A DNA stretch of 64,000 bases from a candidate division Kazan bacterium RIFCSPHIGHO2_01_FULL_44_14 (GCA_001771185.1 METB01000001.1:186631-250630), one strand, 5' to 3'. Shown: positions 9,846-62,283, counted from the stretch's first letter. Notes: a model not told the origin generated them from the sequence alone. Translations and numbers: made by a program.

Positions 9846-10154
9846 ATGTACTATGTGTACATCTTACAAAGTAGACAGGATGGCAAGTTGTATATTGGCT
9901 ATACAGCCGATTTGCGGTCGCGATTCAGAGAACACAACCAAGGTCTCTCGCAAGCTACTCGCCATCGTCAGCCATTTGATCTCGTCTACTATGAGGCCTT
10001 TAAGGCCAAGAAGGATGCCGTGGTTAGAGAACGGATGATTAAGCAATACAAGCAAGGTTATACCAATCTCAAAAAACGCATCTCAGCAAGCCTTGAACCT
10101 AGAAAGTGGGGGGAGGAAAGTCCGGACACCATTCTAAATCAGGAAAGTCGCTAA
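9846..10154 (+). CDS. Small GIY-YIG nuclease-domain protein (URI/YhbQ-like). Its C-terminal about 20 codons overlap the 5' part of RNase P RNA.
   Basis: MYYVYILQSRQDGKLYIGYTADLRSRFREHN. One of four paralogues in the window. Confidence 0.7.
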   Translation: MYYVYILQSRQDGKLYIGYTADLRSRFREHNQGLSQATRHRQPFDLVYYEAFKAKKDAVVRERMIKQYKQGYTNLKKRISASLEPRKWGEESPDTILNQESR

Positions 10155-10167
10155 CGGCGACCGTTGC

Positions 10168-10297
10168 CAGTGCTTCGCACTGGGAAATTTATCCAATCTC
10201 TCCAATCTGACCAATCTTACCAATCTAAGAAATTAAATTGGCGAAGGTTGGAATAAATTGGATTAAATTGGTTAGATTGACCAATGCGGAGCGTTGG
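10168..10297. repeat. Hairpin element copy 1 inside rnpB (CAGTGCTTCGCACTGG, an AT-rich imperfect palindrome, CCAATGCGGAGCGTTGG).
   Basis: Same architecture and partly identical sequence to 10331-10445 and to the 23S inserts at 42974-43105 and 43741-43893. Confidence 0.7.
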
Positions 10298-10330
10298 TGA
10301 TAGGGAAAGTGCCACAGAGACAATACTAAC

Positions 10331-10445
10331 CAGTGCTTCGCACTGGAATCATCAAATCTCAAAATCCAAATCCCAAACAGATTATTGTTTGATATTTGGT
10401 GCTTGGGACTTGGTATTTCCAACGCGGAGCGTTGGTGAAAGGTGA
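10331..10445. repeat. Hairpin element copy 2 inside rnpB.
   Basis: CAGTGCTTCGCACTGG, an AT-rich palindrome, CCAACGCGGAGCGTTGG; a tandem duplicate of copy 1 with a different interior. Confidence 0.7.
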
Positions 10446-10977
10446 AAAGCAACAGGGTGTTGAAGTGTTGAATGGCGGGTTAATCCCGCCAATCGGCTCC
10501 AAAGCTACCTGTCGGACTCCGTCGTGAGACGGATGTTCTGGCAAACCCTTTCCGGTGCAAGTTGGGCTGGACCGTGTCCGTCAATCGCTTTGGTTTAGAC
10601 GAGGCGGACAAGGACCCTAACGCTTGAGATTAATGGCAACATTAACCCCAGATAGATGACTACTTCACCCACCAAAGTTTTGCTTTCGCAAAATTTAGGC
10701 GGGCAAGACAGAATCCGGCTTACGGCTGGCAAAGAGCATACAAATCAACCACCCTCTGGGGGTGGTTTTTGGTCTAAGACAATTCAGTTTATACTATGGA
10801 TGACTTAATCTTGCTAAAATAACCAAGTTATGCCCCGTAGAGAAATTTAAAATACTCTTGGCCCCAATGTTTTCCTTTGGGCCAAACCATGGGGCAAATC
10901 TCGTCAGTAAATCGTTCTAATATCTGTTAGTGGGCCAATAGCAGAAAAGAAAATATTTCTAAATTCTTCTACGGGAT

Positions 10978-12756
10978 ATGACAAAAACTCAACGCACCAA
11001 AAAGACCGACAAGCATTCTAATCTGTCGCGCATCCGTCATTCGGCTAGCCATATTTTAGCCGAGGCGGTTTTGCGTCTTTATCCAGGAACTAAAATCGGA
11101 TTCGGACCAGCCACTGAAGATGGGTTTTACTATGACTTTGAATTTAAGAAACCAATTACCGACACCAATCTTCCCAAAATCGAGTCCGAAATAATTCGAC
11201 TGATTACCGAAGGCCGGACTTTTAAGCGATCAGTTCAGACCGTTGCCGTCGCCAAGACCTGGGCTAAAAAAATTGACCAGCCCTACAAGGCGGAACAAAT
11301 CGACGAACTAAAACGGACCGGACACAAGCGAATGTCATTTTATACCTCTGGGGATTTTACTGATTTGTGCGAAGGGCCGCATGTAACTTCTACCAAAGAC
11401 ATTGGCGCCCTCAAACTCTTGTCAGTCGCTGGGGCTTATTGGCGAGGTGACGAGAAGAACAAACAGTTGACCAGAATTTACGGGACAGCTTTCGCTACCC
11501 AAAAAGAACTCGAGGAGTACCTGAACATGCTAGAAGAAGCCAAAAAACGCGACCATCGCAAATTGGGCGCCGAGTTAGAACTATTTACTTTTGATGACCG
11601 AGTCGGGCCCGGGCTGCCACTGTGGCTACCGAATGGCACCATTATAGTTGACGAATTAGAACGCTTGGCCAAAGCCACTGAACTGACTGCCGGATACAAA
11701 CAGGTTCGCACTCCTCACATTGCCAAGCAATCAATGTATCTGACCAGCGGTCATCTCCCTTATTACGAAGACAGTATGTTCCCGCCAATGGAATTCGAGG
11801 GTGACCGATACTACCTTAAAGCAATGAACTGCCCACATCATCACACCATTTTTGGGAGTAGTCCAAAAAGTTATCGCGACCTTCCTCTACGGCTAGCTGA
11901 ATATGGCACTTGTTATCGTTATGAAAAGTCCGGGGAATTGTTTGGTTTAATGCGAGTCAGAATGTTATCAATGAATGATGCCCACATTTACTGCACCCCC
12001 GAACAGTTCGCCGACGAATTTCGAGCCGTGAACGAAATGTATCTCAAATATTTCAAACTGTTTGGGATTAAAAAATACATCATGCGGTTCTCAACTCATT
12101 CAAAAGCAGGTTTGGGCAAAAAATATGTAGATGAACCGAAATTGTGGAAAGCCACCGAAGACATGGTGAGGCGGGTATTAAAGGATTCGAAAGTCCCATT
12201 TGTTGAAGTGGCCAACGAAGCCGCTTTTTACGGGCCGAAAATTGATGTGCAGGTTTGGAGCGCAATCGGAAAAGAACTCACTTTAGCCACTAACCAAGTT
12301 GATTTCGCTCAACCTCGGCGCTTCAACTTAACCTACACCGACAAACAGGGTAAACCCCAAACCCCGCTGTGTATTCATCGGGCTCCCCTATCCACCCATG
12401 AGCGATTTATCGGCTTTTTAATCGAACATTACGCTGGGATTTTCCCGCTCTGGCTGGCGCCAATCCAGGCCAAGATTCTCCCGATTAGCGAACGGCATCT
12501 AACTTACGCCAAACAGATTGCAAACCAACTTTTGGCTGGTGGCATCCGAGTCGAAGTTGATACTCGCGGAGAATCAGTCGGCAAACAAATTCGAGAGGCC
12601 GAAATGCACAAAGTCCCCTACATGTTAATCGTTGGAGACAAAGAGAAATCGGCCAAGACCGTTTCAGTCCGGCATTTGACCAAAGATGATTTGGGACCAA
12701 TGGCAATTAGCAAACTAATTAAATTATTGGGGGATGAAATTACCAGCCGGAACTAA
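10978..12756 (+). CDS. thrS: Threonyl-tRNA synthetase.
   Basis: Class II aaRS motifs with the ThrRS signature (NCPHHHTIF, RLAEYGTCYRYE, HRAPLSTHERFIGFLIEHY) and a C-terminal anticodon-binding domain. Confidence 0.95.
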   Translation: MTKTQRTKKTDKHSNLSRIRHSASHILAEAVLRLYPGTKIGFGPATEDGFYYDFEFKKPITDTNLPKIESEIIRLITEGRTFKRSVQTVAVAKTWAKKIDQPYKAEQIDELKRTGHKRMSFYTSGDFTDLCEGPHVTSTKDIGALKLLSVAGAYWRGDEKNKQLTRIYGTAFATQKELEEYLNMLEEAKKRDHRKLGAELELFTFDDRVGPGLPLWLPNGTIIVDELERLAKATELTAGYKQVRTPHIAKQSMYLTSGHLPYYEDSMFPPMEFEGDRYYLKAMNCPHHHTIFGSSPKSYRDLPLRLAEYGTCYRYEKSGELFGLMRVRMLSMNDAHIYCTPEQFADEFRAVNEMYLKYFKLFGIKKYIMRFSTHSKAGLGKKYVDEPKLWKATEDMVRRVLKDSKVPFVEVANEAAFYGPKIDVQVWSAIGKELTLATNQVDFAQPRRFNLTYTDKQGKPQTPLCIHRAPLSTHERFIGFLIEHYAGIFPLWLAPIQAKILPISERHLTYAKQIANQLLAGGIRVEVDTRGESVGKQIREAEMHKVPYMLIVGDKEKSAKTVSVRHLTKDDLGPMAISKLIKLLGDEITSRN

Positions 12757-16737: not shown

Positions 16738-17006
16738 ACCAAATCTTTCCATTTAGGGTTACTTGCTTCTATTAGATTAATTTTCCACTGCCGGTGCCAA
16801 TTTTTAAGCTGTTTCTCTCTTTGAATCGCTTTGGCAATGTCAGAGTATTCTTCCAAATATACCAAATGATACAGACGATATCTTTGAGGAAAAGATAGGG
16901 TGGTCCTGGAATGTAAATCGAGTCAATTTTCAATTCCGCTGGTCACTCCAATATACAGTGTGCCACGGGGTTTATTGGTAAGAATATAAACAAATCCTAC
17001 TTTCAT
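16713..17006 (-). pseudogene. GIY-YIG nuclease gene interrupted by an in-frame TGA at codon 28 (rc TCA at 16923-16925). The N-terminal 27 aa and C-terminal 69 aa are in the same frame.
   Basis: Minus-strand translation gives MKVGFVYILTNKPRGTLYIGVTSGIEN*LDLHSRTTLSFPQRYRLYHLVYLEEYSDIAKAIQREKQLKNWHRQWKINLIEASNPKWKDLVRDAETPR*. Both halves align to the intact paralogue at 17620-17904. Confidence 0.6.
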
Positions 17007-17014
17007 CGGGTATA

Positions 17015-17065
17015 GATCCCGAAACCCCTCGGCGGGCTCGGGACATCGCAAGTTCGGGATGACAT
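17015..17065. repeat. Hairpin repeat copy (GATCCCGAAACCCCTCGGCGGGCTCGGGACATCGCAAGTTCGGGATGAC).
   Basis: An inverted copy of the 16683-16737 sequence with a few substitutions. Confidence 0.7.
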
Positions 17066-17070
17066 TATAG

Positions 17071-17478
17071 TTATTTCTTAAAAATAAGTAGTTTAGGAGC
17101 CAAAAAGTTCCATAAGAAAATGACTCCAATCGAAAGAATTTTGACAAGATTGACATCCCATCCAAATATTATACTTAGAATATAAATAAAGGTATTTGAA
17201 ATTCCCACTCCCACCGTGACCACGACCAAATAAAACGGTAATTGAGTTTTCCAATTTCCTTCCGTATCACCAAAAGTCCATAATTTATTCCAAACAAAAC
17301 CATTAGTTGCCGCAATCAAAAACGCCACAGTATTAGCAAGAATAATCTGCCAGTGGAAATACAAAAACAAATTCAACAAGCCGATATCAATAGCGGTATT
17401 TACGATACCAACTGTGGCAAATCTTAAAAATTGACGTAGTATGACGGAATTTAGAATTTGGAATTTGGAATTTAGCAT
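17071..17478 (-). CDS. GtrA-family membrane protein (polysaccharide-synthesis associated).
   Basis: FLRFATVGIVNTAIDIGLLNLFLYF...FVWNKLWTF. The 5' end lies in a (GAATTTR)n heptamer repeat, so the exact start is uncertain. Confidence 0.7.
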   Translation of the reverse strand: MLNSKFQILNSVILRQFLRFATVGIVNTAIDIGLLNLFLYFHWQIILANTVAFLIAATNGFVWNKLWTFGDTEGNWKTQLPFYLVVVTVGVGISNTFIYILSIIFGWDVNLVKILSIGVIFLWNFLAPKLLIFKK

Positions 17479-17491
17479 TAGAACTTTATTT

Positions 17492-17619: not shown

Positions 17620-17904
17620 TTATTCCCATTGCATTGATATATCCTCCCATCCTGGATTCATCCGTTGAATCAAGGTCTCTTTCTTACTACGACGCCAACC
17701 TTTAAACTGCTTTTCGCGTGCAATAGCAGATTCCACATCCAAACAAGATTCAAAGTAAACTAATTGTTGAGTTTTGTATTTTGACGAGAATCCAGGGATC
17801 AATTCGTGTTCATGTTCGTACGCTCGTCTGTTTAAATCATTGGTAACACCGACATACAACACTCCTGAACGACTGGCCATAATATAGACATAGTATTCTT
17901 TCAT
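17620..17904 (-). CDS. Small GIY-YIG nuclease-domain protein, flanked by imperfect inverted repeats.
   Basis: MKEYYVYIMASRSGVLYVGVTNDLNRRAYEHE. Flanks are GTCATCCCGAGCGTAGTCGAGGGATC (17587-17612) and rc CTTGTCATTCTGAGCGAAGCGTTAGCGGAGTCG (17915-17955). Confidence 0.75.
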   Translation of the reverse strand: MKEYYVYIMASRSGVLYVGVTNDLNRRAYEHEHELIPGFSSKYKTQQLVYFESCLDVESAIAREKQFKGWRRSKKETLIQRMNPGWEDISMQWE

Positions 17905-17993
17905 TATAAGATTCTTCGACTCCGCTAACGCTTCGCTCAGAATGACAAGAGGGACATATTTTTTCCTATATTCTAGATTCTAAATTCCAAATT

Positions 17994-18719
17994 CTAGCCT
18001 TTTCGAGCAATTACCAAAATACTGCTCCCCCATGGGAAATGCCCACCATCAACCAAATAATCGGCTTCAATCCGACTGAGATTAATTAACACTTTGTCCA
18101 TCCGGGAAGTAGTTGCGATGTAAGAAGTTTTTGGTTTGGTACCTTTAGTAAATAATCTAACCAGTACCACCACCGGAAAAGTAAAGAAGAAAAATGGCGA
18201 AATAAATTGGATTGTAAAACCGGCCTTTCGAAATTTAGTTTTCAACTCACCAACCGAATAACGCCGATAATGGTGCAAGGCCTGATCGTGAGCTGACCAT
18301 AACCATTGATACGCTGGCACAGTTATCATCAAGTATCCACCCAACTTGATGGCCTGCCACCAAGATTTTAACGCGGTTTCGTCTTCTTCGATATGTTCTA
18401 AAACATCAAATGCTGTCACCAAATCAAATTGGTCGGGTAATTCTAGATTTGTACCATCAATTTGAACCAAAGTGTCATAGGCCCGTTGCTGTCGACAATA
18501 ATTTAACGCCTCGGGGCTAGAATCAACTCCAGTCACTTTCCCCCATTCCTTCAACCACCAGTAATTAATGCCGGTGCCACAACCAATATCCAATACCTGC
18601 TTATTATCTTGAGGTGGTAGCCATTTAGCCAGCACTCGACGCAAAATTTCCCGTCGACCAATATGCCACCAGTAGTTCTGCTCCTGTTTGTGCATCTGCT
18701 CGTATTCGGCCAGTTCCAT
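17994..18719 (-). CDS. Class I SAM-dependent methyltransferase.
   Basis: Motif I VLDIGCGTGINYWWL and a post-I acidic residue (VTGVDSS). Confidence 0.75.
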   Translation of the reverse strand: MELAEYEQMHKQEQNYWWHIGRREILRRVLAKWLPPQDNKQVLDIGCGTGINYWWLKEWGKVTGVDSSPEALNYCRQQRAYDTLVQIDGTNLELPDQFDLVTAFDVLEHIEEDETALKSWWQAIKLGGYLMITVPAYQWLWSAHDQALHHYRRYSVGELKTKFRKAGFTIQFISPFFFFTFPVVVLVRLFTKGTKPKTSYIATTSRMDKVLINLSRIEADYLVDGGHFPWGSSILVIARKG

Positions 18720-39283: not shown

Positions 39284-39592
39284 CTAATTAAACAACCGTC
39301 CCGCGGAGAGTATCCACTGCGTCAATGCAGTATGTTCGACTGTCCACTTGGCCACAAACAGCAAGGCCGTCATTGATACAAGTAATGGGACCAACACCAC
39401 CAAATCCCGCTTGACCGTCGTATGACTATTATTAGCAATCATTTCAGCCGATGGCTCTTTGGCTATAATTGGTGACTGAACAGACGAATCCGCCAGCTGG
39501 CGGACCGCTGTAGGAGCGGATGTATTAGCGGTTTGATGCAAGGCCTGAAGTCGCTGTAACTCTTTCAGTTTTTTGAGATGTTTATTGGACAT
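39284..39592 (-). CDS. Hypothetical small protein with a C-terminal TM helix.
   Basis: ORF only; no motif. Confidence 0.3.
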   Translation of the reverse strand: MSNKHLKKLKELQRLQALHQTANTSAPTAVRQLADSSVQSPIIAKEPSAEMIANNSHTTVKRDLVVLVPLLVSMTALLFVAKWTVEHTALTQWILSAGRLFN

Positions 39593-40915: not shown

Positions 40916-41659
40916 CATGATAATCCATTATTACTAATGGCATAGACTATATCTTCATCCTTTCCGCCCACCGGCGGAGGAGGAGGTGGCGTGTGATTCT
41001 GCGCTACGGCAAAATCTCATCAGTTGTTCTTGCTTTGAACAATTGAATCAGTCGTTACGGGGAACAAGATGATGTGTTTGCAGAAATTGTTTGACCGTTG
41101 CTTGCGTGGTCGTGCGTTTCTTTGAGTAATTATACTTTGCGGTTTCATCCACTAGAGTCGCTCTAGCAAGCAACTCTTGGGGAGTGATTCTCTGGTATGA
41201 AGAACCAATGCCCTTAACGCATAAATCAATAACCTTCTGCGCTAGGACTTGTTTCAGTTGCAGATATGGCAACAATTTGGTTAAAACTTCGTAGACCGGC
41301 TGATACCCAACAATCGTGTATTCAGCCATCTGATCATTACGAACACGAACATATCCATGTTTCAGGTGGCCCTTAAGCCATTCGAGAAAGTGTTTTCTGT
41401 CTTCTTTTTGATAAAAGACAATGCTGACTCGAATCTGATAGCCGTGGACATATCCACTCCGTTTCACCAGTTGCGCCATAATGCAACCATCTCCATCCAA
41501 AAATCCTGCAATGTAAGCAAGTAATGTTTCTGCCATTATCTTGATCTTCCCTCGGGGTTACCCTTTTTCCGTTCGGTAGGAAAGTAGGGTTTCTCCGATA
41601 CAGCCACATTTATTGTACCGCATTTCTGCGGTAGAACGCAATGTGATTTACGTTCTGAA
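40916..41659 (-). mobile_element. Group I-type intron (744 nt) in 23S domain V, inserted between ...GGGTTCAGAACGT and CGTGAGACAGTTCGG (the E. coli ~2586-2593 region), encoding a LAGLIDADG homing endonuclease.
   Basis: Flanking exon sequences align to E. coli ...UAGAACGU|CGUGAGACAGUUCGG; the 5' exon ends in U, the insert ends in G, and it contains the 41048-41536 ORF. Confidence 0.75.
41048..41536 (-). CDS. LAGLIDADG homing endonuclease (single-motif, I-CreI-like size).
   Basis: MAETLLAYIAGFLDGDGCI... motif; 162 aa; located wholly inside the 23S intron. Confidence 0.85.
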   Translation of the reverse strand: MAETLLAYIAGFLDGDGCIMAQLVKRSGYVHGYQIRVSIVFYQKEDRKHFLEWLKGHLKHGYVRVRNDQMAEYTIVGYQPVYEVLTKLLPYLQLKQVLAQKVIDLCVKGIGSSYQRITPQELLARATLVDETAKYNYSKKRTTTQATVKQFLQTHHLVPRND

Positions 41660-41672
41660 CCCAGCTCGCGTG

Positions 41673-41704
<32 letters not shown>

Positions 41705-41718
41705 AACCTGCTCCAGCT

Positions 41719-41749
<31 letters not shown>

Positions 41750-41781
41750 AAACCGCTTCGTCGATATGGACTCTTGGAAGC

Positions 41782-41813
<32 letters not shown>

Positions 41814-42291
41814 TCGTTGAGCTTCGGCGCACCCATGTGCAACCGTCGGATCACTATATCCTGCTTTCGCATCTGCTTGACTTGTAGGTCTCGCAGTTAA
41901 GCTCCCATATACTATTGCGCTATCGTCCCGATTTCCATCCGGGACTAGGGAACCTTTGAACGCCTCCGTTACTTTTTAGGAGGCAACCGCCCCAGTTAAA
42001 CTACCCACCAAACGCTGTCCTCCTGCCAGATAATGGCTAGGAGTTAGAATTAAAAATGCATCAGGGTGGTATTTCACCGTTGACTCGCTGATGGCTAGCG
42101 CCACCAGGTCATTGTCTCCCACCTATCCTACACAAATAAATCTCTAACCCAACGCCAGGTTGTAGTAAAGCTCCACGGGGTCTTTTTGTCTTGCTGCGGA
42201 TAGCCGGCATCTTCACCGGCAATGTAGTTTCGCCGAGTCCCTCTTTGAGACAGTCATCAGACCGTTACGCTATTCGTGCGGGTCGGAACTT

Positions 42292-42578
42292 CATGTTAAC
42301 TCTATTTTTCAATAGAGATCAGACTATACCTTCATCTTGTCGCAAACCGTAGGAGATCGTTTTCGCGATATCCATAGTTTGTTTGCTAGACAAGAGCTGA
42401 CGTGTTGTTCCGCTTTACAGCAGAACCTCGCCTTTCGGCTCAGTCGTTACGGGTCACCTTAATTATAAGGTGTTCCCTCGGTATTAGCATATCCCCATAG
42501 CATAAGGATTTAGCTTTCACCGATATGAGTCAGTTTGCTTTGTAGTGTTACCACTACATTCGGGCAAGTTTCCCACCT
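42292..42578 (-). mobile_element. ORF-less intron-like insertion (287 nt) in 23S at the position equivalent to E. coli ~1931 (GUCGGGU | AAGUUCCGACC).
   Basis: Exon sequence is continuous with E. coli after removing the insert; the insert ends ...GTTAACATG (3' G) and follows an exon U. Confidence 0.6.
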
Positions 42579-42598
42579 ACCCGACAAGGAATTTCGCT

Positions 42599-42787
42599 CT
42601 TAGATTCCTTACACTAAGGACCATGTCTTCACCCCGATTAGTCGGGGGCGTGGTGTATGGCCTCTTGTAGCCACGTATGGACTTTCTTTATGTTGCCATA
42701 AAGTAAGGTAGCATTTTGCGAGTTATCGTATCGCTTATAACAGTCCCAGTCCTTCTCGATTTAACAATTTTAATTGTTCAACCGAGA
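42599..42787 (-). mobile_element. Short intron-like insertion (189 nt) in 23S at the position equivalent to E. coli ~1917 (GGUCCUAAGGU | AGCGAAAUUCC), 20 nt upstream of the previous one.
   Basis: The exon 20-mer AGCGAAATTCCTTGTCGGGT separates the two inserts. The insert contains an exon-mimic GGTCCTTAGTGTAAGGAATCTAAG near its 3' end. It is short for a group I intron, so its class is uncertain. Confidence 0.5.
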
Positions 42788-42823
<36 letters not shown>

Positions 42824-42973
42824 AGGGCTTAGTGTCAGAGCTTCGCCTTGCGGCTAACCCCTCTACGTGACCTTCTGGCACCGGGCAAGCGTCAGTCCCT
42901 ATACTTCCTCTTTCGAGTTAGCAGAGACCTGTGTTTTTGCTAAACAGTCGCCTGATGTCTTTAGCTGCGGCCC

Positions 42974-43105
42974 ACCTCACGCTCCGCGTGAGGAAATCTA
43001 ACCAATTTATTCCAATTTATTCCAACCTTCGCCAATTTATTTTCATAGATTGGTAAGATTGGTGAGATTGTTTAGATTGACTAAATTTACTCGTGCGAAG
43101 CACGA
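42974..43105. repeat. Hairpin intervening-sequence element in 23S helix 63, same family as the rnpB inserts.
   Basis: On the rRNA strand: CGTGCTTCGCACG, then an AT-rich segment (CCAATCTTACCAATCTA..TAAATTGGCGAAGGTTGGAATAAATTGGA) about 90% identical to 10200-10290, then CCTCACGCGGAGCGTGAGG. Replaces the E. coli helix-63 variable region. Confidence 0.75.
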
Positions 43106-43740
43106 TGTGGGCAGTCCTTATTCCGAAGTTACGGACGCTATTTTGCCGAGTTCCTTAAAGAGGGTTCTCTCGTGCGCCTGAGGCTACTCGCCCTATCCAC
43201 CTGTGTCGGTTTAGGTACGGATGCTTAATATTCTCGTTAGAGGTTTTTCTGGTCAAATTAGATCAGCCAAGTCGTATTGTCCCGAAGAACTCAACTTCCA
43301 TTCGTAGCTCACGGTTGCTCAATAAATTGAACAGTCCCCCGGATTTGCCAAAGGGACCCCATTAACTACTTAGACCAAGAAACCTATCTTGGCTCGGCCT
43401 ACCAACTTGCGTCGCCCCATCACTAGACGTGCAGACCGGTAAAGTCAGCATCCAGCCTACCTTTCGGCAGGTTGATCATCTGATCTACCAATTTGCTTGT
43501 CTTGGGCGAATATCAAGCAGTACAGGAATATTAACCTGTTGTCCATCGCCTACGCCTTGCGGCCTCGGCTTAGGACCGACTAACCCTGGGACGAAAACCG
43601 TTACCCAGGAAACCTCGGATAAATCGGCGTCAAGGTTTTTCACCTTGATCTCGCTACTCGTGCCAACATTCTCACTTCTGCGCGCTCCACCCAACCTCAC
43701 AGTTAAGCTTCACTGCTGCGCAGAACGCTCCCCTACCACA

Positions 43741-43893
43741 CCACTGCTACGCAGTGGAAGCACTAAATCCTAATTACTAAATTCTAAACAAGCCCCAAAT
43801 CCTAATGTCCCAAAAAATGTTTGGAAAATTGAATCATTGGAATTTGTTTAGAGTTTATGATTTCGAATTTCGTATTTCCATTGCGGAGCAATG
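43741..43893. repeat. Hairpin intervening-sequence element in 23S helix 45.
   Basis: CCACTGCTACGCAGTGG, an AT-rich palindrome, CCATTGCGGAGCAATGG. Inserted between ...GATACCGAAGATGCGGATG and TGTGGTAGGGGAGCGTTCTG (E. coli ~1164-1185). Confidence 0.75.
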
Positions 43894-43979
43894 GCATCCG
43901 CATCTTCGGTATCTAGCTTAGCCCCGTTACATTTTCGGCGCAGACACACATCGACCAGTGAGCTATTACGCTATCTTTA

Positions 43980-44010
<31 letters not shown>

Positions 44011-44518
44011 TTGTTAATGTGTCTCCACTTCCTTTCACACTTAGCTAGATTTAGGGACCTTAGATGGCGGTTTGGGCTGTTTCCCTTTCGACATACGACG
44101 CTTAGCCGCCGTTTTCTGACTCCCATGCTTTAACCAGACAGTATTCGGAGTTTAATTGGATGCGGTACGGTAAACCGCCCGAATCCATTCAGTAGCTCTA
44201 CCACTGCTGGGAACGCTATGAGGCTATACCTAAATATATTTCGGGGAGAACCAGCTATCTCCGGGTTCGATTGGAATTTCTCCGCTAACCACAGCTCATC
44301 ACCCCACTTTTCAACGTAGGTGTGTGCGGCCCTCCACTGCTTCTTAGGGCAGCTTCAGCCTGGCCATAGTTAGGTCACCCGGTTTCGGGTCTAATCCCTG
44401 CTACTTCAGTCGCGCTATTCGCACTTGCTTTCGCTTCGGATACGGATTAAAAATCCTTATCCTTGCAACAGAAATTAACTCGTTGGCTCATTCTACAAAA
44501 GGCACGCCGTCACCCCAT

Positions 44519-44676
44519 CAGCACACAATGCTGGATGAAATAACCAAATTCCAAATCACAAATCACAAACAAACTCCAAATTTAAATTTCTAAACAAAAA
44601 AAACAGAAAAATTATTATCTGGTGCTCATTTGATGATTGATTATTGGCGTTTGGTTACTCCAGCACTCTGTGCTGG
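44519..44676. repeat. Hairpin intervening-sequence element in 23S helix 25.
   Basis: AGCACAGAGTGCT, an AT-rich low-complexity palindrome, AGCATTGTGTGCT. Inserted just 5' of GGCGTGCCTTTTGTA (E. coli ~530-545). Confidence 0.7.
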
Positions 44677-44739
44677 CGGGGCTCCGACTTTTAATCGGGC
44701 ATTCGGTTTCAGGTACTATTTCACTCCCCTCACAGGGGG

Positions 44740-44779
<40 letters not shown>

Positions 44780-46062
44780 GAGAAATGATATTTAGCCTTA
44801 CCAGATGGTCCTGGCACATTCCGGCAGGATTTCACGGGTCCCACCGTACTTAAGAAATAATGTTCAGAGTGATTTTCTTTTCGCTTACGGGACTTTCACC
44901 CACTATGGTTGCCCTTTCCAGAGACCTTCAGCTAAGAAAATCATTGTTAACTCCTAATTTGGTCTACCGCCCAAAAATACATCACCCTTATAACCCTCTC
45001 CTACACAACGCCAGTAGGCTTTAACATGTAAGAAAGTTTAGACTCTTCCCTTTTCGCTCGCCACTACTTAGGGAATAACATTTGTTCTATTTTCCTCGTG
45101 CTAATAAGATGTTTCAGTTCACACGGTTCCCTCCTCATTGTCTATGTATTCAACAATGGGTTCCCGCCAATTCAAAGCTTGTATATCGCTACTACCCATT
45201 CGACTAATCAACTAATTATTTATCGATTGGAATGTTTGATACACCAGCCCTAAATTGGCGGGAGGATTGCTCCATTCGGACATCCCCGGATCACAGGTTG
45301 TTTGACACCTACCCGAGGCTTATCGCAGTCTACTACGTCCTTCTTCGGTCATTTCTCCCAAGGCATCCACCGCATGCCCTTGAGTAACTTACGCTCGTTT
45401 CTCCAAGAGACGAGTGCCTTGCACTTTAAATCGACGATTCAAGAAAGCGATTTTGCTTTCTTTATCTTTCTTTTCTTTCAGTGCATGTTGTCAACGAACT
45501 AAAAAATTCAAAGAATAACTGGAAGGGGCTAAAAAAATGATAATCCCTCGGCGCTGCTCGGGGTAAATTTTACTGCGTAAAAATTAAAAAGCAGGGCGTT
45601 CATCCCTGCTTGAAGTCAACAGTTAACGGATGAACTTAGATTTGAAGCGAATTTTGTAAATATAAAATAGCCAAGTCGTCTAGGCCAGAAGTTAAATTGG
45701 ATATTAGTTTCCTCAAAAGCTTATAAATAGTGTTATATGTGGTCTCACCAAAGTGGCAGAAGCACTAGTTGCAACGATACTATATATACCAGTTGCCCGC
45801 AAGAGATATTTTGCCATTCTGACCTGGAATAGTCAACCCCGTAGAGAATTTTGGACAGGCGCCTCTTGCCGGGTGCCTCCTGATACCAATCATCCAAAAT
45901 CTTCTACAGGGTCAAGGGGGGCCTGTCAATGGGTTATAATCAGGTTATAACTCCTATTCGTCCCGCCTGCCCCGTGCGAATGAAATGAGTCCTTCGGGGT
46001 TAGAAATCACCTACCGGGATAATCGAGGAACGGATAGAAGTAATTCATAAATATACGCTAGG

Positions 46063-46967: not shown

Positions 46968-47097
46968 TCCGAAACCCTAAATCCTAAACAAATCCCAAGT
47001 CCTAAATCCCAAATTCAAAACAAAAACCAAAGCTAACTGTTTGAGATTTAGAATTTATAATTTGTTTAGAGTTTAGATATTAGGATTTAGAATTTCT
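46968..47097. repeat. 130-nt low-complexity imperfect palindrome (CTAAATCC-type units) filling the def-fmt intergenic spacer.
   Basis: Left half CTAAATCCGAAACCCTAAATCCTAAACAAATCCCAAGTCCTAAATCCCAAATTC mirrors right half GAGATTTAGAATTTATAATTTGTTTAGAGTTTAGATATTAGGATTTAGAATTTC. Confidence 0.7.
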
Positions 47098-48399: not shown

Positions 48400-48515
48400 T
48401 GGAGTATGTGTAATTTTGAATGATGAATTTTGAATTTTGAGTGAATATCTTAATGCCTTAATTTTGAAACATTCAGTCATTCGAGTTTGATTCGAAATTC
48501 GAAATTAAGAATTAG
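48400..48515. repeat. About 105-nt dispersed element (TAATTTTGAATGA..AATTTTGAATTTTGAGTG..CTTAATTTTGAAACATTCAGTCA..TTGATTCGAAATTCGAAATT); second copy at 51890-51995.
   Basis: The two copies align at about 90% identity along their length. Confidence 0.75.
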
Positions 48516-48617
48516 AAATTGTCCCAACGGATGGGGTGGCAAAAGAAACAGCCGTCAGTAGACGGCTTAGATTCTTCTTCTGCTGGACAGCAGAATCAGA
48601 ATGACAAGAAAATAAAA

Positions 48618-49900: not shown

Positions 49901-50146
49901 TTAGGTTAACAAGTGTTTATTGGCAAATGCTTTCCCAGAACCAGCTTTTAGATAGGTTTCGAACTTTTCAGCTTGGGCTTTTGTCTTGAATGCTATGTAG
50001 CAAATCATGTCCCACGGTTTGAACTTGCTAGTATGTGGCGATTGACCAGCGTTGTGTGCAACAAACCGAGATTTTAAATCGGATGTACTACCAATATATG
50101 TTTGCATTTTATTCTTATGACTGCGAAGCAGATAAACGTAATACAT
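49901..50146 (-). CDS. Small GIY-YIG nuclease-domain protein.
   Basis: MYYVYLLRSHKNKMQTYIGSTSDLKSRFVAHN; start at the internal ATG; lies next to tRNA-Ala. Confidence 0.7.
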   Translation of the reverse strand: MYYVYLLRSHKNKMQTYIGSTSDLKSRFVAHNAGQSPHTSKFKPWDMICYIAFKTKAQAEKFETYLKAGSGKAFANKHLLT

Positions 50147-50272: not shown

Positions 50273-50346
50273 TGGTGGACCTAGGCAGAATTGAACTGCC
50301 GTCTCAGCAATGCGAATGCTGCGTACTACCGCTGTACTATAGGCCC
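50273..50346 (-). tRNA. tRNA-Ala (anticodon CGC) with the G3:U70 identity pair.
   Basis: Reverse complement is GGGCCTATAGTACAGCGGTAGTACGCAGCATTCGCATTGCTGAGACGGCAGTTCAATTCTGCCTAGGTCCACCA. Confidence 0.85.
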
Positions 50347-50464: not shown

Positions 50465-51805
<1,341 letters not shown>

Positions 51806-57866: not shown

Positions 57867-58097
57867 TTAAGGCAATTTGATGGTCAAGTTGTTGCCATCC
57901 ACCTTGGTACCAGTATGAGTTCCACCAGCCCAATCGGTGCCATTAAAGATAACCTGCGGACCAGTCACTTCGGCCTTGGAGCCAAATAACTTAATCCAAT
58001 CAACTATCTGCCGACCGAACAAAACAAGCAAAATTACCGCAACGGCGGCAAAGATAGTTAGTCCAATTTTGAACCCCCTGGTTTGGAAAAAGAACAT
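57867..58097 (-). CDS. Small secreted/membrane protein, first gene of the surface operon.
   Basis: 76 aa with an N-terminal TM helix. Confidence 0.4.
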   Translation of the reverse strand: MFFFQTRGFKIGLTIFAAVAVILLVLFGRQIVDWIKLFGSKAEVTGPQVIFNGTDWAGGTHTGTKVDGNNLTIKLP

Positions 58098-58227
58098 ATT
58101 GAAAGGTTGATTTTTATTTTAGGTATTAAATTATAATACTACAAAATCTGGTTTTTGTCAAGGGGAAGTCCGTAATCCCCCAGTTGACTCAACCCTGCCA
58201 TTTATAGTAGAGTTAGCCAAGTATGAG

Positions 58228-58347
58228 TCCCGTTGGAAATCACCTAACGGCACCCTCACTGCCCTGTCAAACAGGCACTTACTATAAACATACACTCATG
58301 ACACTAATATCGGACTAAAAACGCTAGGTCCCTTATTTCTAACGAGA
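58228..58347. mobile_element. MITE-like element (about 120 nt) with 13-bp terminal inverted repeats TCCCGTTGGAAAT / ATTTCTAACGAGA.
   Basis: About 90% identical to 59839-59968. A solo TIR lies at 58352-58364. Confidence 0.7.
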
Positions 58348-58486
58348 TGAATCCCGTTAGAAACTGTCCAGCCAAGGAGAAATTGGGTTCATCTAGTCAA
58401 CCAATGTTTACCACTAATACCTTCCATACCAGTTTTGCGAAAAAGAATTCCTGGAGAATTATTTTTCGCGTAAGGTTTCTAACGGG

Positions 58487-58729
58487 ATGAAGAAGGATAT
58501 CCATCCAACTTATTTCCCGAAAGCCAAAATTGCCTGCGCCTGCGGGAATATCTTAGAGGTGGGCTCAACTCAAGAGTCGACCAGGGTTGATATCTGCTCC
58601 AAGTGCCATCCGTTCTATACTGGGAAGCAAAAACTGATGGATAAGGCCGGACGGGTAGAAAAATTCCAGGAACGGCTGGCTCGAGCCAAGGCCGGGGTTA
58701 AGGCCAAAGTAGCCAAAAAGAAGGCCTAA
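58487..58729 (+). CDS. rpmE: 50S ribosomal protein L31.
   Basis: [28 protein letters not shown]...[13 protein letters not shown]. The ATG is directly preceded by TTTCTAACGGG. Confidence 0.9.
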
Positions 58730-58778
58730 CAGTTTCAAACTGGTCTGTTTATGCCACAATAGGAGTGGCAATTTTAGT

Positions 58779-59834
58779 ATGAAAATAGATGAGATTAAAA
58801 CCGAGTATGCCACCATCCGACATCAGTTGGCTAATTTGAGCCGACTCTCCCCTACCGAACAGACCAAACTGTTGAAACGGGAAGGTTATTTGAAAGAAAT
58901 TGTTTCGCTTTACCAAGAGATAGAACGACTAAAAGCAGAAATTTCCGAGCATGAGCAAACTGCGACGGGAGCCGACCAGGAAATGGCCGAACTAGCTCGT
59001 GAAGAATTGCCCATTTTGCAACCCAAACTAGCCCAGTTGATTGAACAATTGGAGGTCTTGATGTTACCAAAAGACCCCAATGATGACCGAGACGCCATCG
59101 TCGAAATCCGGGCTGGGGCTGGCGGGGACGAAGCCGGAATTTTTGCTGGCGAACTCCTAAGAATGTATAGCCGATTTGCTGTCGAACAGGGCTGGAAAGT
59201 AGAAATGATTGATGGTAGTCCAACCGAGAACAATGGTTTCAAGGAAGTCATCTTTCAAGTCACCGGACATAATGTCTATGCTACCCTTAAATTTGAAAGT
59301 GGAGTTCATCGGGTTCAGCGCGTTCCAATAACCGAGGCCAAAGGCCGAGTCCACACCTCGACTGCTACAGTTGCGGTTTTGCCGGTGGCTGAAGAAGTCG
59401 ATTTAGAAATTAAACCCGATGATTTACGGATTGATGTGTTTCGGTCTGGCGGACATGGCGGTCAAAGCGTTAACACTACCGACTCGGCCGTCCGAATTAC
59501 TCACATTCCAACTGGAACTGTGGCAACCTGTCAGGACGAGAAATCGCAGACCAAAAACAAACTGAAGGCAATGGGAGTGCTTCGGTCCCGGCTACTGGCA
59601 TTGGAGGAAGAAACCAGACGCCAGACATTATCTCAAGAACGCAAGTCGCAAATTGGGACTGGTGACCGAAGTGAAAAAATTCGAACATACAATTTTCCTC
59701 AAGATCGAATTACCGATCATCGAGTTAACATCAGTTGGCATCACATTGAAAATGTTTTGGCAGGCCATCTGGAACCAATTGTGGAAGCATTAAAAACCGA
59801 ACAACTCCGACTCGACCGCGAGGCGAATCTATGA
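58779..59834 (+). CDS. prfA: Peptide chain release factor 1.
   Basis: GGQ motif ([25 protein letters not shown]), RVQRVPITE (PxT-type, RF1-like), N-terminal domain. The gene ends in TGA. Confidence 0.9.
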
Positions 59835-59838
59835 TTTA

Positions 59839-59968
59839 TCCCGTTAGAAATCACCTAACGGCACTCCTACTGCCCTGTCAAACAGACACTTACTATAAAC
59901 ACTACATTCACAACATTAATATCGGACTAAAAACGCTAGGTTTTTATTTCTAACGGGACTTATTCCCT
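59839..59968. mobile_element. Second full copy of the MITE-like element (TIRs TCCCGTTAGAAAT / ATTTCTAACGGGA), starting 5 nt after the prfA stop.
   Basis: Direct alignment with 58228-58347. Confidence 0.7.
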
Positions 59969-60081
59969 GAGTGAGCGGAGCGAATCGAAGGGACACATTT
60001 GGTATGGCCTTCAACGAAGTTTTTATCCTGAGCGTAGCCGAAGGGCTCAGGCAATAATTTCAATAGAAGATTTCTAACGGG

Positions 60082-60909
60082 ATGAAAATCAAAACTGCCC
60101 TCAATTGGGCTACTAAACAATTGCCTGCTAGTTCCACTCCTCGGCTAGATGCCGAGGTGCTTTTGGCCCACATTCTAGGCGTCAGTAAAACCGACCTATA
60201 TATAAATAGTGAACAACGGTTATCACCGATAGTGGAAGTTCGTTATCGTTGGCTGATTGCCAGACGACACAGTGGCGTACCAGTAGCTTACTTAACTGGC
60301 CAAAAAGAGTTTTTCGGACTCAATTTTATTGTTAACCGCCAGGTTTTAATCCCCCGTCCAGAGACCGAGACAATCGTTAGACGAACAATAGAATTAATTG
60401 AACGGCATAATTTATCAGTCGTGCATGAGGTGGGAACCGGGAGTGGCAATATTGCAGTTGCCCTAACCAAAAATCTACCCACTTTACGAGTAGTGGCTAG
60501 TGATATATCCGAGACCGCCCTGAAAGTGGCTCGACGCAATGCCATCCAGTACGGAGTCGATGATAGAATTGAATTTATTTGTGCTAATCTGGGCGAACAC
60601 ATCCCATCGGTCGATTTGGTCGTCGCTAATCTTCCTTATGTTCCAACCGACTACTATCCAACTAGAGAAGTATTCCACGAACCGTCGATGGCAGTTTTTG
60701 TCCCAGACGACGGCCTGGGATTGTACCGACAGTTCTTCTTAAACACCAAGTTCCGGTTTGCCGTAGTTGAACTGGGCCCTTGGCAAATGGATATATTGGT
60801 ACCCTGGCTCAAAACCAACTTCCCCGGAACGACGATTGCTCCAGTCAAAGACGACAGTGGCTATGTGTGTGGATTAGAAATAACCAAGAAAGTAATGAGT
60901 AACGAGTGA
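60082..60909 (+). CDS. prmC: Release-factor glutamine N5-methyltransferase.
   Basis: VGTGSGNIAVAL and NLPYV (NPPY-type) motifs; prfA-prmC order. The ATG is preceded by TTTCTAACGGG. Confidence 0.85.
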   Translation: MKIKTALNWATKQLPASSTPRLDAEVLLAHILGVSKTDLYINSEQRLSPIVEVRYRWLIARRHSGVPVAYLTGQKEFFGLNFIVNRQVLIPRPETETIVRRTIELIERHNLSVVHEVGTGSGNIAVALTKNLPTLRVVASDISETALKVARRNAIQYGVDDRIEFICANLGEHIPSVDLVVANLPYVPTDYYPTREVFHEPSMAVFVPDDGLGLYRQFFLNTKFRFAVVELGPWQMDILVPWLKTNFPGTTIAPVKDDSGYVCGLEITKKVMSNE

Positions 60910-60964
60910 TGAGTGAGGGAAGAGTTAGTTTTTCCACTCGCGACTCGCGACTTGCCACTCGCGA

Positions 60965-61534
60965 CTAACCTTCTATCTTCCCTCTAATAATTTCCGCCAC
61001 CTCCGCCACAATTTTTGACAGTTGCCCATCATAATTAATCACTCGCACATCATACTTGGGGGCCTGATCCAATTCAGATCGGGCGATTTTTAGTCGGCGG
61101 CGAATATCCGCCTCGGCCATCCCCCGCTTTTCCATCCGAGTCCGCAAGATATCAAACGCACTCGGAACCAAAAAAATTACATAAGTATTTTTATAATGGT
61201 CCTTCAAAAAATCCGCGCCCTGTGAATCCAACACCCACAGGGGATACTGATTGTGTTCAAAAATTTTTTCTACATCCGCCCGCTGACTGCCGTAAAAATT
61301 CCCGGCATATTCGGCCCACTCGAACATTTTGTCGTCTCGGACCAAGGTCTCAAATTGTTCTTGACTAACAAAATGATAATTTACTCCATCAATTTCTCCG
61401 GCTCGGGGTACTCGCGAAGTAGTAGTAATGACTTTGTCCACCGGAATGTTGCTTTGTAGGATACCGGTAACCACGGCGGTTTTGCCAACCGCTGATGGTC
61501 CGGTGATGATAAACAAGGGTTTATTTAAGTCCAT
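60965..61534 (-). CDS. gmk: Guanylate kinase.
   Basis: FIITGPSAVGKTAV...TTTSRVPRAGEIDGVNYHF. Its ATG is preceded, on the minus strand, by GATTTCTAACGGG. Confidence 0.9.
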   Translation of the reverse strand: MDLNKPLFIITGPSAVGKTAVVTGILQSNIPVDKVITTTSRVPRAGEIDGVNYHFVSQEQFETLVRDDKMFEWAEYAGNFYGSQRADVEKIFEHNQYPLWVLDSQGADFLKDHYKNTYVIFLVPSAFDILRTRMEKRGMAEADIRRRLKIARSELDQAPKYDVRVINYDGQLSKIVAEVAEIIRGKIEG

Positions 61535-61608
61535 CCCGTTAGAAATCTGTATTCAATATAGTTATACTTATGTTTTACTCCGTACTAACCAGCCCGTTTC
61601 CTAAATTT

Positions 61609-62283
61609 CTAACGGGACAAGTCATCTAAAAATTGGGTTAAATCATCTGGGAGTGGCGCGATGAAGGTTTGGCGTTTGCCTAATAAATCAACAAAAGAGA
61701 TTTTGTGTGAATGCAGAAATTGGCGAGCCAGTGAATCCGGTTTACCGTAGGTTTTGTCTCCCACAACCGGATAGCCCAAACTGCTAAAATGGACTCTAAT
61801 TTGATGCGTTCGGCCGGTAGTAGGTTGAGCTCGGAGATAGGTAAAACCGCGATAGTAGCCAATGACTTCATAGCCAGTTTCCGAGATTTTACCGGAAGCC
61901 CGGGGCACAACTTGGGTCCGTTTAACCAAATCTCGAGACAATGGGATTTTAATGATTCCCCGCTTGGGAGTGAGATGACCATGAACTAAAACTAAATACT
62001 CTTTATGGATTTCGCGCTGACGAAATAAAGTTCGAAGATAAGTAAAATTATCCTTGGTCTTAGCCACTAACACTATTCCAGAAGTATCTTTGTCTAACCG
62101 ATGCACGAGGCCGTAATGCTCGGTTTTAAGCGGTGACTTAGGCAAATGATGGGCCAATAAATCAACCAGGGTAGTAACGGCTGGTCCACTACCTTCATGC
62201 ACTACCAACCCGGCCGGTTTATTAATCACCAGTAACTCGTAGTTCTCAAAAATAATCTCCAATTTATTTATTGATGATTCCAT
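61609..62283 (-). CDS. RluA-family pseudouridine synthase.
   Basis: HRLDKDTSGIVLVAKT catalytic-Asp motif. Confidence 0.85.
   Translation of the reverse strand: MESSINKLEIIFENYELLVINKPAGLVVHEGSGPAVTTLVDLLAHHLPKSPLKTEHYGLVHRLDKDTSGIVLVAKTKDNFTYLRTLFRQREIHKEYLVLVHGHLTPKRGIIKIPLSRDLVKRTQVVPRASGKISETGYEVIGYYRGFTYLRAQPTTGRTHQIRVHFSSLGYPVVGDKTYGKPDSLARQFLHSHKISFVDLLGKRQTFIAPLPDDLTQFLDDLSR

Follow-up and report, generated by a model that had tools for sequence, protein, structure and literature searches.

A cluster of short repeat-bounded elements adjoins the start codons of housekeeping genes in a 64,000-nucleotide stretch of the genome of candidate division Kazan bacterium RIFCSPHIGHO2_01_FULL_44_14 (METB01000001.1:186631–250630; this whole stretch is hereinafter called the window, and positions are counted from its first nucleotide). 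Four elements with terminal inverted repeats (TIRs), designated A, B, A′ and C, and a remnant, D, follow here in the order A, B, rpmE, prfA, A′, D, prmC (plus strand), gmk (minus strand), C and a pseudouridine-synthase gene (minus strand). Comparison with syntenic relatives shows these units to be insertions at start codons, and the same repeats bound, outside the window, a small gene for a GIY-YIG nuclease. We consider it probable that A, A′, B, C and D are non-autonomous members, of the type of miniature inverted-repeat transposable elements (MITEs), of a mobile family of Patescibacteria in which insertion at the start codon, mobilization in trans by the GIY-YIG protein and coupling of host gene translation by reinitiation operate jointly.

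Elements of the rpmE–gmk region and empty sites in relatives

The left repeat (L, TCCCGTTAGAAAT) and the right repeat (R, ATTTCTAACGGGA) are both given as read on the plus strand of the window, and the element ends may be written as the repeat pair TCCCGTTAGARAT/ATYTCTAACGGGA. With one mismatch allowed, TTTCTAACGGG occurs in the window 11 times against 1.36 expected, a number reached in none of 100 shuffled sequences, and the exact core CTAACGGG seven times against 1.7 expected from shuffles, which rules out chance origin of the motif. Ten of the 11 copies of R (up to one mismatch) lie within 58228–61617 and the remaining one at 88–98. The final A of the repeat is at the same time the A of the ATG codon of rpmE (58487), prmC (60082) and gmk (61534, minus strand), and the ATG of a bactofilin gene (99) is preceded by a one-mismatch variant; thus the motif and its abutment to start codons, noted in the original prediction, are borne out. 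Pfam agrees with the identities given there to all four genes, the profiles beginning at residue 1–7, and inspection of the upstream regions of rpmE, prmC, gmk and the bactofilin gene likewise revealed no Shine-Dalgarno (SD) sequence. Copy density amounts to 5–7 per 64-kb window with five copies in 3.4 kb, several copies per 8 kb occur in some other loci outside the window, and such tight clustering suggests local hopping.

Two elements stand one after another in front of rpmE. Element A (120 nt, 58228–58347, plus strand) has the ends TCCCGTTGGAAAT/ATTTCTAACGAGA, and its last A begins an ATG at 58347; it is preceded by a distal copy of the rpmE start, ATGAG (58223–58227, plus strand), in which positions 58224–58227 make up the left duplication copy of A (TGAG versus TGAA). 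The TGAA at 58348–58351 is common to A, as its right flank, and to B, as its left flank, and together with the terminal A of element A reads ATGAA. Element B (136 nt, 58352–58487, plus strand; ends TCCCGTTAGAAAC/GTTTCTAACGGGA) has a 14-nt perfect inverted repeat and a perfect TGAA duplication (58348–51 and 58488–91), its last base being the A of the rpmE ATG. It is spanned entirely by an upstream open reading frame (uORF) of 47 codons (58347–58490, plus strand; MNPVRN…RFLTG), whose TGA stop overlaps the rpmE ATG (ATGA). Between prfA and prmC, element A′ (120 nt, 59839–59958, plus strand; 90–92% identical to A) has perfect 13-nt TIRs and the flanks TTTA and CTTA. Upstream of it, comparison with relatives recognizes a relic of the ancestral overlap of prfA stop and prmC start (ATGA, 59831–59834, plus strand), and the ATG of this relic opens a 40-codon frame running through A′ to the TAA of its right repeat (59951–59953). 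Remnant D (59959–60082, plus strand) follows immediately; its right repeat (60070–60082), the last A of which is the A of the prmC ATG, is separated from the end of A′ by 111 nt, and its left repeat is missing or replaced. The interior of D (59959–60069) contains short hairpin-like repeats of the type CTGAGCG(N)AGCG…CGAAGG(G/A), which are also found at 17905–17950, just 5′ of a GIY-YIG gene at 17904, with related sequence at ~17020–17060. Element C (84 nt, 61534–61617, minus strand) has perfect 13-nt TIRs, an internal AACGGG copy near its distal end and a gene-proximal end adjoining the gmk ATG (61534); on its other side (61618–61625, minus strand) a distal copy of the gmk ATG (61623–61625) is followed by ACTTG, a variant of the left junction of the form AC[CT]TG.

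These boundaries modify the earlier description of the copies. Two copies of about 120 nt with TIRs are indeed present, the end of the second lying at 59958 and not 10 nt further on, at 59968. The repeats at rpmE and gmk, which had been taken for solo copies, turned out to be the right end of element B (left repeat 58352–58364) and one end of element C (other repeat 61605–61617), so that only the prmC copy (60070–60082) and the bactofilin variant have no recognisable partner.

Comparison was made with two relatives of the same gene order, represented by loci L136/L137 and L138 (PrfA 69% and 72% identical); L136 and L138 carry empty sites at all three window loci. The ancestral rpmE promoter (TTGACT-18 nt-TAGAGT; 58184–58213 in the window, plus strand, 9 nt 5′ of the distal ATG) is kept in L138 and leads there directly into the gene (TTGACT-18-TAGAGT-tgccaagt-ATGAAGGAG), whereas in the window the same promoter is followed by tagccaagt-ATGAG[A]ATGAA[B]ATGAAGAAGG; the junction reading …TAGAGTtgccaagtATGAAGGAG in the relatives thus corresponds to …TAGAGTtagccaagtATGAG[A]ATGAA[B]ATGAAGAAGG. 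The stop of prfA and the start of prmC share an ATGA overlap in the relatives versus a 248-nt insert in the window, and the 14-nt overlap of rluA with gmk is replaced by the 84-nt element C, window rluA ending at the TAG of the repeat: the stop of the pseudouridine-synthase ORF (…LSR, TAG at 61609–61611, minus strand) is now provided by the element. Since the syntenic relatives have empty sites and start the same genes without the motif, comparison of the loci shows the window elements to be insertions at the start codon that are absent from relatives. In the source population these insertions are fixed: all 16 contigs with identical RpmE or Gmk carry them, none of the 16 has an empty site, and the only single-nucleotide polymorphism among them falls on a third codon position of the uORF of B.

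By size (120 nt for A and A′, 136 nt for B and 84 nt for C, with only short uORFs inside), by TIRs of 13–14 nt (perfect in A′, B and C, two mismatches in A), by flanking duplication (perfect TGAA in B, three of four positions matching in A and A′, deviating in C), by presence/absence among relatives and by copy number, the elements are structurally MITEs, as their first designation as MITE-like had implied. Apart from the rpmE–gmk region, a possible decayed copy is located at 34–102 (plus strand), where the variant right repeat ATTTCTAACAGGA (87–99) adjoins the bactofilin ATG (99) and a 22-codon uORF, opened by ATGAA at 34, ends …FLTG-TGA in overlap with this ATG; no convincing left repeat is found in the locus (34–102). 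A related element with the divergent TIR CCCCGTAGAGAAATTTA…/…TAAATTCTTCTACGGGA (10833–10976, plus strand) is flanked by a TATG duplication (10829–32 and 10977–80) and sits at the ATG of ORF 10978–12756, 3′ of a TAAAAT −10 box; its TATG register recurs in two full-length elements from metagenomes (L148 and L152).

Distribution of the family and its start-codon register

An exact scan of species-representative genomes (596 Gb) for the 14-mer ATTTCTAACGGGAT gave at least 119 loci. Because thousands of chance occurrences of any 14-mer are to be expected in 596 Gb, single matches (Collinsella, Bacteroides and similar) are meaningless. Among the matches listed, an inverted second copy is found 23–300 nt away in 57 of 119 loci, and about 44 of these 57 belong to Patescibacteria of a dozen or more lineages, including Saccharibacteria, Nomura-, Doudna-, Kaiser-, Taylor-, Jorgensen-, Lipton-, Yanofsky-, Zambryski-, Portnoy- and Kerfeldbacteria, Paceibacterota and Kazan; a few originate from metagenome-assembled genomes (MAGs) labelled Planctomycetota, Omnitrophota or WOR-3. 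Loci with such labels (L042, L043, L051, L062, L075, L104, L110, L160, L082 and L088) have complete pairs and one GIY-YIG copy; some of the pairs are minimal (37–59 nt) and some are positioned away from gene starts, and they could reflect horizontal spread or mis-binning. Two paired hits fall in viral contigs.

The TIR of the family is 13 bp, TCCCGTTAGA(A/G)AT … AT(T/C)TCTAACGGGA, the variant AGAGAT being, by the loci found from the protein (see below), commoner than AGAAAT carried by the window elements. The interiors, 10 to 270 nt long, are unrelated between subfamilies, and many elements have extra sub-terminal complementarity. The flanks are direct repeats, mostly TGAA/element/TGAA (here and below a slash within a sequence marks the junction) with the left flank xATGAA, or the reverse complement of this arrangement; TGGA, TGAG, TAAA, TATG and TGGG are encountered as well. 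Among the listed matches, ATG follows 66 repeat ends, and in 52 of these cases it begins an ORF of 60 codons or more, or one that reaches the end of the locus after 20 codons or more. In 48 non-redundant elements abutting ORFs the duplication is 4 bp long in 33, 2 bp in six, 3 bp and 5 bp in one each, and absent in seven. On this evidence the first bases of a gene, A/TGAA, are shown to be the apparent preferred target, the left copy retaining ATGAA. Abutment to the start codon follows from the element beginning with T and ending with A, since its terminal A and the right TGAA compose ATGAA again. The host ORFs differ among genomes, having widely varying lengths and differing annotated functions with no common function evident. 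The proposal that the element targets start-codon-proximal sequence is supported by the empty sites in relatives, by the 4-bp duplication in 33 of 48 elements and by recurrence of the insertions at dozens of unrelated genes of Patescibacteria. A separate left junction, AC[CT]TG/TCCCG…, is found at 61618–61625 of the window and in loci L037, L040, L056, L087 and L141, with duplication of TG and usually no upstream copy of ATG.

Many first genes of the window have TAnAAT 6–8 nt before ATG, and internal operon genes use AGGAGG. When the sequence upstream of the distal ATG copy was considered for 31 elements with clean duplication, a TAnnnT hexamer ending 4–10 nt (mostly 6–9 nt) upstream was found at 14 targets and SD-like sequence at two; for the hexamer, the remaining starts of long ORFs in these loci give 25% and randomly chosen positions 10%. 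The targets are shown in this way to be typically SD-less and often, judging by the spacing of the putative −10 box, of leaderless arrangement. SD sequences are absent at the genes in question because these were leaderless or overlap-coupled before insertion, and not because the motif replaced them. The alternative that the element serves as a source of promoters finds no support: the sole consensus promoter upstream of rpmE (58184–58213) is ancestral and lies 5′ of the insertions, and a −10 hexamer at leaderless distance is missing from the right repeat. A promoter inside the repeat or element was rejected for the latter reason and because A, B and D contain no gene-facing consensus promoter; two 9-of-12 matches touching C are not upstream of the host gene, one (61540–61568, plus strand) facing away from gmk and the other (61533–61506, minus strand) lying 3′ of the gmk ATG. 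A −10-like TAGAAA is present within the left repeat. The role of a general translation signal was also discarded, given that the other ~50 genes of the window have no motif. What stands of the suggestion that the element supplies the context of translation initiation is that its terminal A with the duplicated TG(AA) restores ATG and that stop codons of the right repeat (TAA, or TGA formed with the duplication) close an upstream frame 0–7 nt from this ATG; as a substitute for SD the motif does not qualify. Gene starts of the window have other repeats too: periodic short tandem repeats of AATTCTA/TTCTAAA type are located directly 5′ of or just inside several of them (2085–2116, 47070–47097, 48481–48520, 17440–17480 and 17960–18010), the spacer between convergent prmC and gmk (60905–60966) has a ~21-nt period with CCACTCGCGACT and runs of (A/G)GTGA(G/T)GAGTGA, and similar ACTCG-rich sequence (~51752–51790) is situated 5′ of the ATG of ORF 50465–51751.

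A GIY-YIG gene between the same repeats and its known counterparts

Two genome loci (L085 and L096) have repeat pairs of 277 and 294 bp, each filled by one ORF. A scan of metagenomes with the pattern repeat-N(245–275)-repeat, covering this single range of spacer lengths, gave 14 loci, and in at least 12 of them the pair encloses a GIY-YIG ORF of 84–95 aa, decayed in some. The coding form of the element thus measures 271–301 bp with its ends and holds a single ORF of ~86 aa of UPF0213/SLX1 type, matching Pfam PF01541 with 57–61 bits (gathering cut-off 22.6; E 1e-15 to 1e-16). The predicted catalytic residues Y6, Y17, R27, H31 and E63, and G19 with them, do not vary among 14 sequences, and in 13 of 14 assessable cases the ORF is codirected with the host gene. 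It ends either at a TAA inside the right repeat (TTC TAA CGG G/ATG) or at a TGA drawn from the duplication (ACG GGA/TGA A) and overlapping the rebuilt host ATG. Some copies start at the captured host ATG (ATG AA/T CCC GTT AGA, that is MNPVR), L096 having no other ATG. In about 150 loci no repeat pair 320–6000 nt apart behaves as a larger unit with the same ends, and between pairs up to 6 kb apart no ORF other than GIY-YIG was found; no DDE, HUH or serine/tyrosine transposase, as expected of an insertion sequence in the sense of ISfinder, is encoded between the ends.

The same association emerges if the protein is taken as the starting point. Its homologues form more than 2,600 clusters (90% identity) at E ≤ 1e-10, and among the closest 120 examined the repeat-encoded …L(S/F)LTG is the exact C-terminus of 102 and the start M.PVR is found in 25. 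Three of these homologues were examined as DNA loci: that of Giovannonibacteria reads TAGAAT-aaatgag-ATGAA/TCCCGTTAGAGAT…GIY-YIG…ATCTCTAACGGGA/TGAA and is followed by a gene in ATGA overlap, the second has the same layout with GTG, and in the third, from a Scalinduaceae-labelled MAG, the repeats are present with neither duplication nor adjacent gene. The MITEs of the window share their TIRs with this GIY-YIG-encoding unit located outside it, and the shared repeats show a link of MITEs to a putative mobility ORF whose start and stop are held in common with the target. The family may represent a new class of prokaryotic mobile elements, a suggestion we make tentatively and with somewhat more doubt than conviction: a TIR element of ~280 bp would have as its only gene a nuclease of ~86 aa of SLX1/UPF0213-type GIY-YIG and would insert with a 4-bp duplication precisely at leaderless start codons, where duplication of A/TGAA would give the element its start codon together with the promoter, as well as its stop codon, and would rebuild the host start within the ATGA overlap.

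The window itself has four GIY-YIG ORFs in other surroundings. That at 17620–17904 (minus strand) is placed between aaaaaatATG/TCCCTCTTGTCATTC and five tandem repeats of ~23 nt (ctcgggatgacaagagggtaaca), and these five repeats, in the segment 17500–17960 (minus strand), stop just before the ATG of ORF 17071–17478. The segment appears to represent a second family of inverted repeats (CCCTCTTGTCAT/ATGACAAGAGGG) that shares the putative promoter-ATG/GIY-YIG/host-ATG architecture, and GGGATGACA also precedes the ATG of 39284–39592 (minus strand). ORF 9846–10154 lacks its own stop codon and extends ~70 nt into the beginning of the gene for RNase P RNA (10083–10733; 651 nt versus a model of 367 positions); possibly a GIY-YIG gene has here entered an RNA gene at its 5′ end. 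An intact small ORF (49901–50146, minus strand) is found directly 3′ of tRNA-Ala (50273–50346) with no recognisable repeats, and the fourth (~16923–17010, minus strand) is interrupted.

Several known systems share individual traits with these elements. Correia elements of Neisseria (CREE/NEMIS) are likewise 100–150 bp long, with TIRs, target duplication, dozens of gene-adjacent copies and a hairpin in the 5′ leader. They differ in repeats of 26 bp versus 13 bp and in duplication of TA versus 4 bp, are confined to one genus, have no start-codon register, frame conservation or known GIY-YIG partner, and exert their effects via internal promoters, IHF sites and RNase III cleavage; the repeat of the window is presumably unrelated in sequence to their consensus. 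Rickettsia palindromic elements are also short mobile palindromic repeats tolerated as translatable sequence. They are located within coding sequence and lengthen the host protein by a stretch of peptide, unlike the elements considered here, which occupy the 5′ edge of the gene and in which the frame mostly ends at the host ATG (in-frame fusion in 4 of 32). In REP/REPIN systems short hairpin-forming repeat pairs are spread in trans by a small nuclease-type protein, RAYT. REPINs have no target duplications and are mostly positioned 3′ of genes, and RAYT is a HUH/Y1 transposase (IS200/IS605-like) encoded once per genome outside the repeats.

As to the protein, genes of GIY-YIG homing endonucleases (T4 Seg, I-TevI) are comparable as small selfish intergenic nuclease genes with little polar effect, and weak matches to TIGR01453 (below cut-off) and to I-TevI (PDB 1mk0, E 0.01) were obtained. 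Homing enzymes of 200–250 aa possess a separate DNA-binding domain and act by gene conversion on one cognate allele with no terminal repeats or duplication. The element protein of ~86 aa (84–95 aa) comprises the catalytic domain without a DNA-binding one, and its TIRs and 4-bp duplications are found before dozens of unrelated genes. Its nearest sequence relatives of solved structure are UPF0213 proteins BH0048 (1zg2, E 6e-14) and EF2693 (1ywl, 1.5e-9) and SLX1 (7cq2, 3e-6), with which it shares, as with YhbQ, the domain-only architecture of ~90–100 aa. The bacterial UPF0213 structures were deposited as “hypothetical” with no function assigned, and SLX1 is a structure-specific nuclease working with a partner subunit. 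We know of no report tying UPF0213/YhbQ/SLX1-type proteins to terminal repeats, target duplications or start codons. Full-text searches of the literature yielded no account of GIY-YIG elements bounded by repeats or of MITEs regenerating the start codon, the nearest remark concerning GIY-YIG-encoding insertions in rRNA genes of the candidate phyla radiation (CPR), which are not introns and seemingly are not spread by homing (J Bacteriol 2024, PMC11270868). These insertions are alike in the group of organisms and in the encoded protein and unlike in residing in rRNA genes, and the text of that paper makes no mention of inverted repeats or target-site duplication. The 23S rRNA gene of the window (41576–45394) is 3.8 kb long versus the 2.9-kb model and contains a group I intron (42300–42588) and further insertions; a 5S rRNA gene is located 1.6 kb from it, and no 16S gene is present in the window.

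Proposed translation through the elements and rival explanations

In the register set by the 4-bp duplication the left repeat is open only in the frame of the distal ATG, the other two meeting TGA or TAG immediately, and close to the host AUG the right repeat gives each of the three frames an outcome, namely a TAA lying 4 nt ahead of the AUG, a TGA in overlap with it or in-frame fusion. In 17 of 32 elements of MITE size, versus 6.2 expected with shuffled interiors, no stop interrupts the frame between the distal ATG and the right repeat, and 17 was not reached in any of 200,000 simulations; these frames end at TAA in eight, in ATGA in five and by fusion in four. As the stops in the left repeat make frames ATG+1 and ATG+2 uninformative as a control, the interiors alone were compared, and stops are absent from the in-phase frame in 17 of 32, from the other sense frames in 4 and 5 and from the antisense ones in 7–10 (p = 7e-4). 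This preference for openness in the upstream-ATG frame suggests termination-reinitiation coupling, the scheme being fitted in the window by element B, with its uORF 58347–58490 ending in the ATGA overlap with rpmE. For both bacteria and archaea, reinitiation after termination has been documented at ATGA and TGATG overlaps (PMC6728339, PMC12548453). Polarity is evident in another feature as well: an extra copy of the core (xCGGG) occurs in 16 of 38 host-oriented MITEs at the promoter-proximal end, usually within ~35 nt of the repeat, and its mirror copy at the other end in none of the 38, elements A and C of the window conforming to this rule. The polarity of the elements relative to the host gene is shown by these counts to be fixed, reflecting, presumably, either orientation-specific integration or survival of one orientation only.

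Under the reading we prefer, the element would insert at A/TGAA with a 4-bp duplication, its terminal A and the right TGAA restoring the host ATG, and the GIY-YIG protein would be the nuclease mobilizing full-length elements and, in trans, MITEs. After insertion the host promoter would transcribe the element together with the gene, and ribosomes would start at the old 5′-terminal AUG, translate through the element, stop within its right repeat or at it and begin anew on the host AUG next to it, by which the host gene would stay translated; the need for ribosomes to reach this AUG would account for the avoidance of stops in that one frame. In the window the scheme would be intact for B and rpmE and decayed or otherwise replaced for A, C and D.

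A number of observations weigh against this reading. A lone GIY-YIG nuclease is, to our knowledge, not known to perform strand transfer, and none of the four GIY-YIG ORFs of the 64-kb window is bounded by the repeat in question. The open frame is kept in only about half of MITEs; in A, C and the composite A′+D stops lie 34 to ~125 nt ahead of the host ATG, so that translation of gmk and prmC must take another route. The 4-bp duplication is lacking in the remaining elements of the 48, and six elements, C among them, share the AC[CT]TG left junction with 2-bp duplication only and fall outside the 4-bp model. The pattern of the genome scan required T after the repeat, with resulting bias to T-initial flanks; the samples free of this bias, namely full-length elements found with a flank-free pattern (TGAA, TGAAA, TGGAA, TGGG, TATG and similar duplications) and the protein-first set, are smaller and agree with the genome scan on flanks. 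Preference for start codons could also result, partly or wholly, from selection, with other insertions lost, rather than from target choice, and some matches come from Planctomycetota-labelled MAGs that may be mis-binned.

An enzyme other than GIY-YIG (transposase, recombinase or host repair) might move the elements in trans, the GIY-YIG gene being cargo or a nested second parasite. GIY-YIG enzymes are hydrolytic nucleases, we know of no GIY-YIG DNA transposase, and the window harbors five or six elements and no GIY-YIG gene flanked by their repeat, its GIY-YIG genes lying in different repeat contexts; all this speaks for such an enzyme. We nevertheless regard it as unlikely, given that no other ORF occurs between the repeat pairs of ~150 loci, that the catalytic residues are conserved and that the GIY-YIG frame is built into the repeats, from LTG and stop in 102 of the 120 closest homologues to the start in 25. 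Restoration of expression by RNA processing is the main alternative to coupling, and the two are not mutually exclusive: a hairpin formed by the repeats would be cut near its base by RNase III or a similar enzyme to give mRNA starting near AUG. Such cleavage is described for Correia elements in Neisseria, both repeats are paired in the folds of all elements with additional sub-terminal complementarity in many, the open frame is missing in half of MITEs, A, C and D among them, and yet essential genes behind them need expression, and at one locus tRNA-Pro is enclosed by two repeats as if by a processing stem. This explanation leaves the frame-specific absence of stops and the stop codons of the right repeat unaccounted for, a 13-bp stem is short for RNase III, and we judge it rather improbable. 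The tRNA locus mentioned (L035, 471–779, a contig of a Saccharibacteria MAG) has tRNA-Pro (487–558) 4 nt from each of the left and right repeats and has partial duplicates and an assembly gap around it; it is either an element carrying tRNA or a case of repeats acting as a processing stem.

That the 13-mer is in essence a cis-regulatory signal (an operator or a ribosome-recruiting sequence of non-SD type) with incidental mobility seems very unlikely. Its fixed register before the ATG of translation-related rpmE and prmC and of gmk and its conservation across lineages of phylum level would suit such a signal, but the register follows directly from the duplication, the motif is present equally at the promoter-distal end in opposite orientation, the host genes vary between genomes with no evident common function, close relatives express the same genes without it, and it is missing from the other ~50 genes of the window. 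The idea of small structured RNA genes of ~120 nt with the repeats as closing stem is harder still to credit. Folding does pair the repeats in all elements, with z from −2.3 to −5.1 in six of seven strand/element folds (A′ −5.1 on the plus and −4.4 on the minus strand; A, more weakly, −2.3 and −0.96), and the TAGAAA of the left repeat resembles a −10 box. Against this, the region 58050–61700 has no Rfam match at the gathering threshold nor at E ≤ 1, the interiors are not conserved, being unrelated, 10 to 270 nt long and capable of being a protein gene, and flanking duplications with empty sites indicate insertion of DNA. Integron attC sites were considered because the core GTTAGA/TCTAAC resembles GTTRRRY/RYYYAAC, and were rejected: the order of cores is reversed (GTTAGAA…TTCTAAC versus R″(RYYYAAC)…R′(GTTRRRY)), the seventh base does not fit, and the flanked units are not cassettes, the genes being syntenic housekeeping ones.

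That the repeat is conserved exactly across lineages and occurs in MAGs labelled Planctomycetota, Omnitrophota and WOR-3 suggests ongoing horizontal spread among bacteria of groundwater and sediments. If the proposed reading is true, the family would approach the theoretical minimum of a mobile element, two 13-bp ends and one nuclease of 86 aa, with promoter, start and stop codon borrowed from the target site and the start codon returned to the host. A GIY-YIG nuclease would then be the mobility protein of a DNA transposon, a natural system for learning how a hydrolytic nuclease could drive transposition with target duplication, and part of the large “hypothetical” UPF0213 family would acquire a selfish role and a testable function. 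This would explain thousands of mis-annotations as “excinuclease ABC subunit C” or “putative endonuclease” (more than 2,600 protein clusters), as well as, in CPR genomes, many miscalled gene starts and small ORFs that are spurious, and would provide direct comparative evidence for leaderless initiation and termination-reinitiation in these uncultured bacteria.

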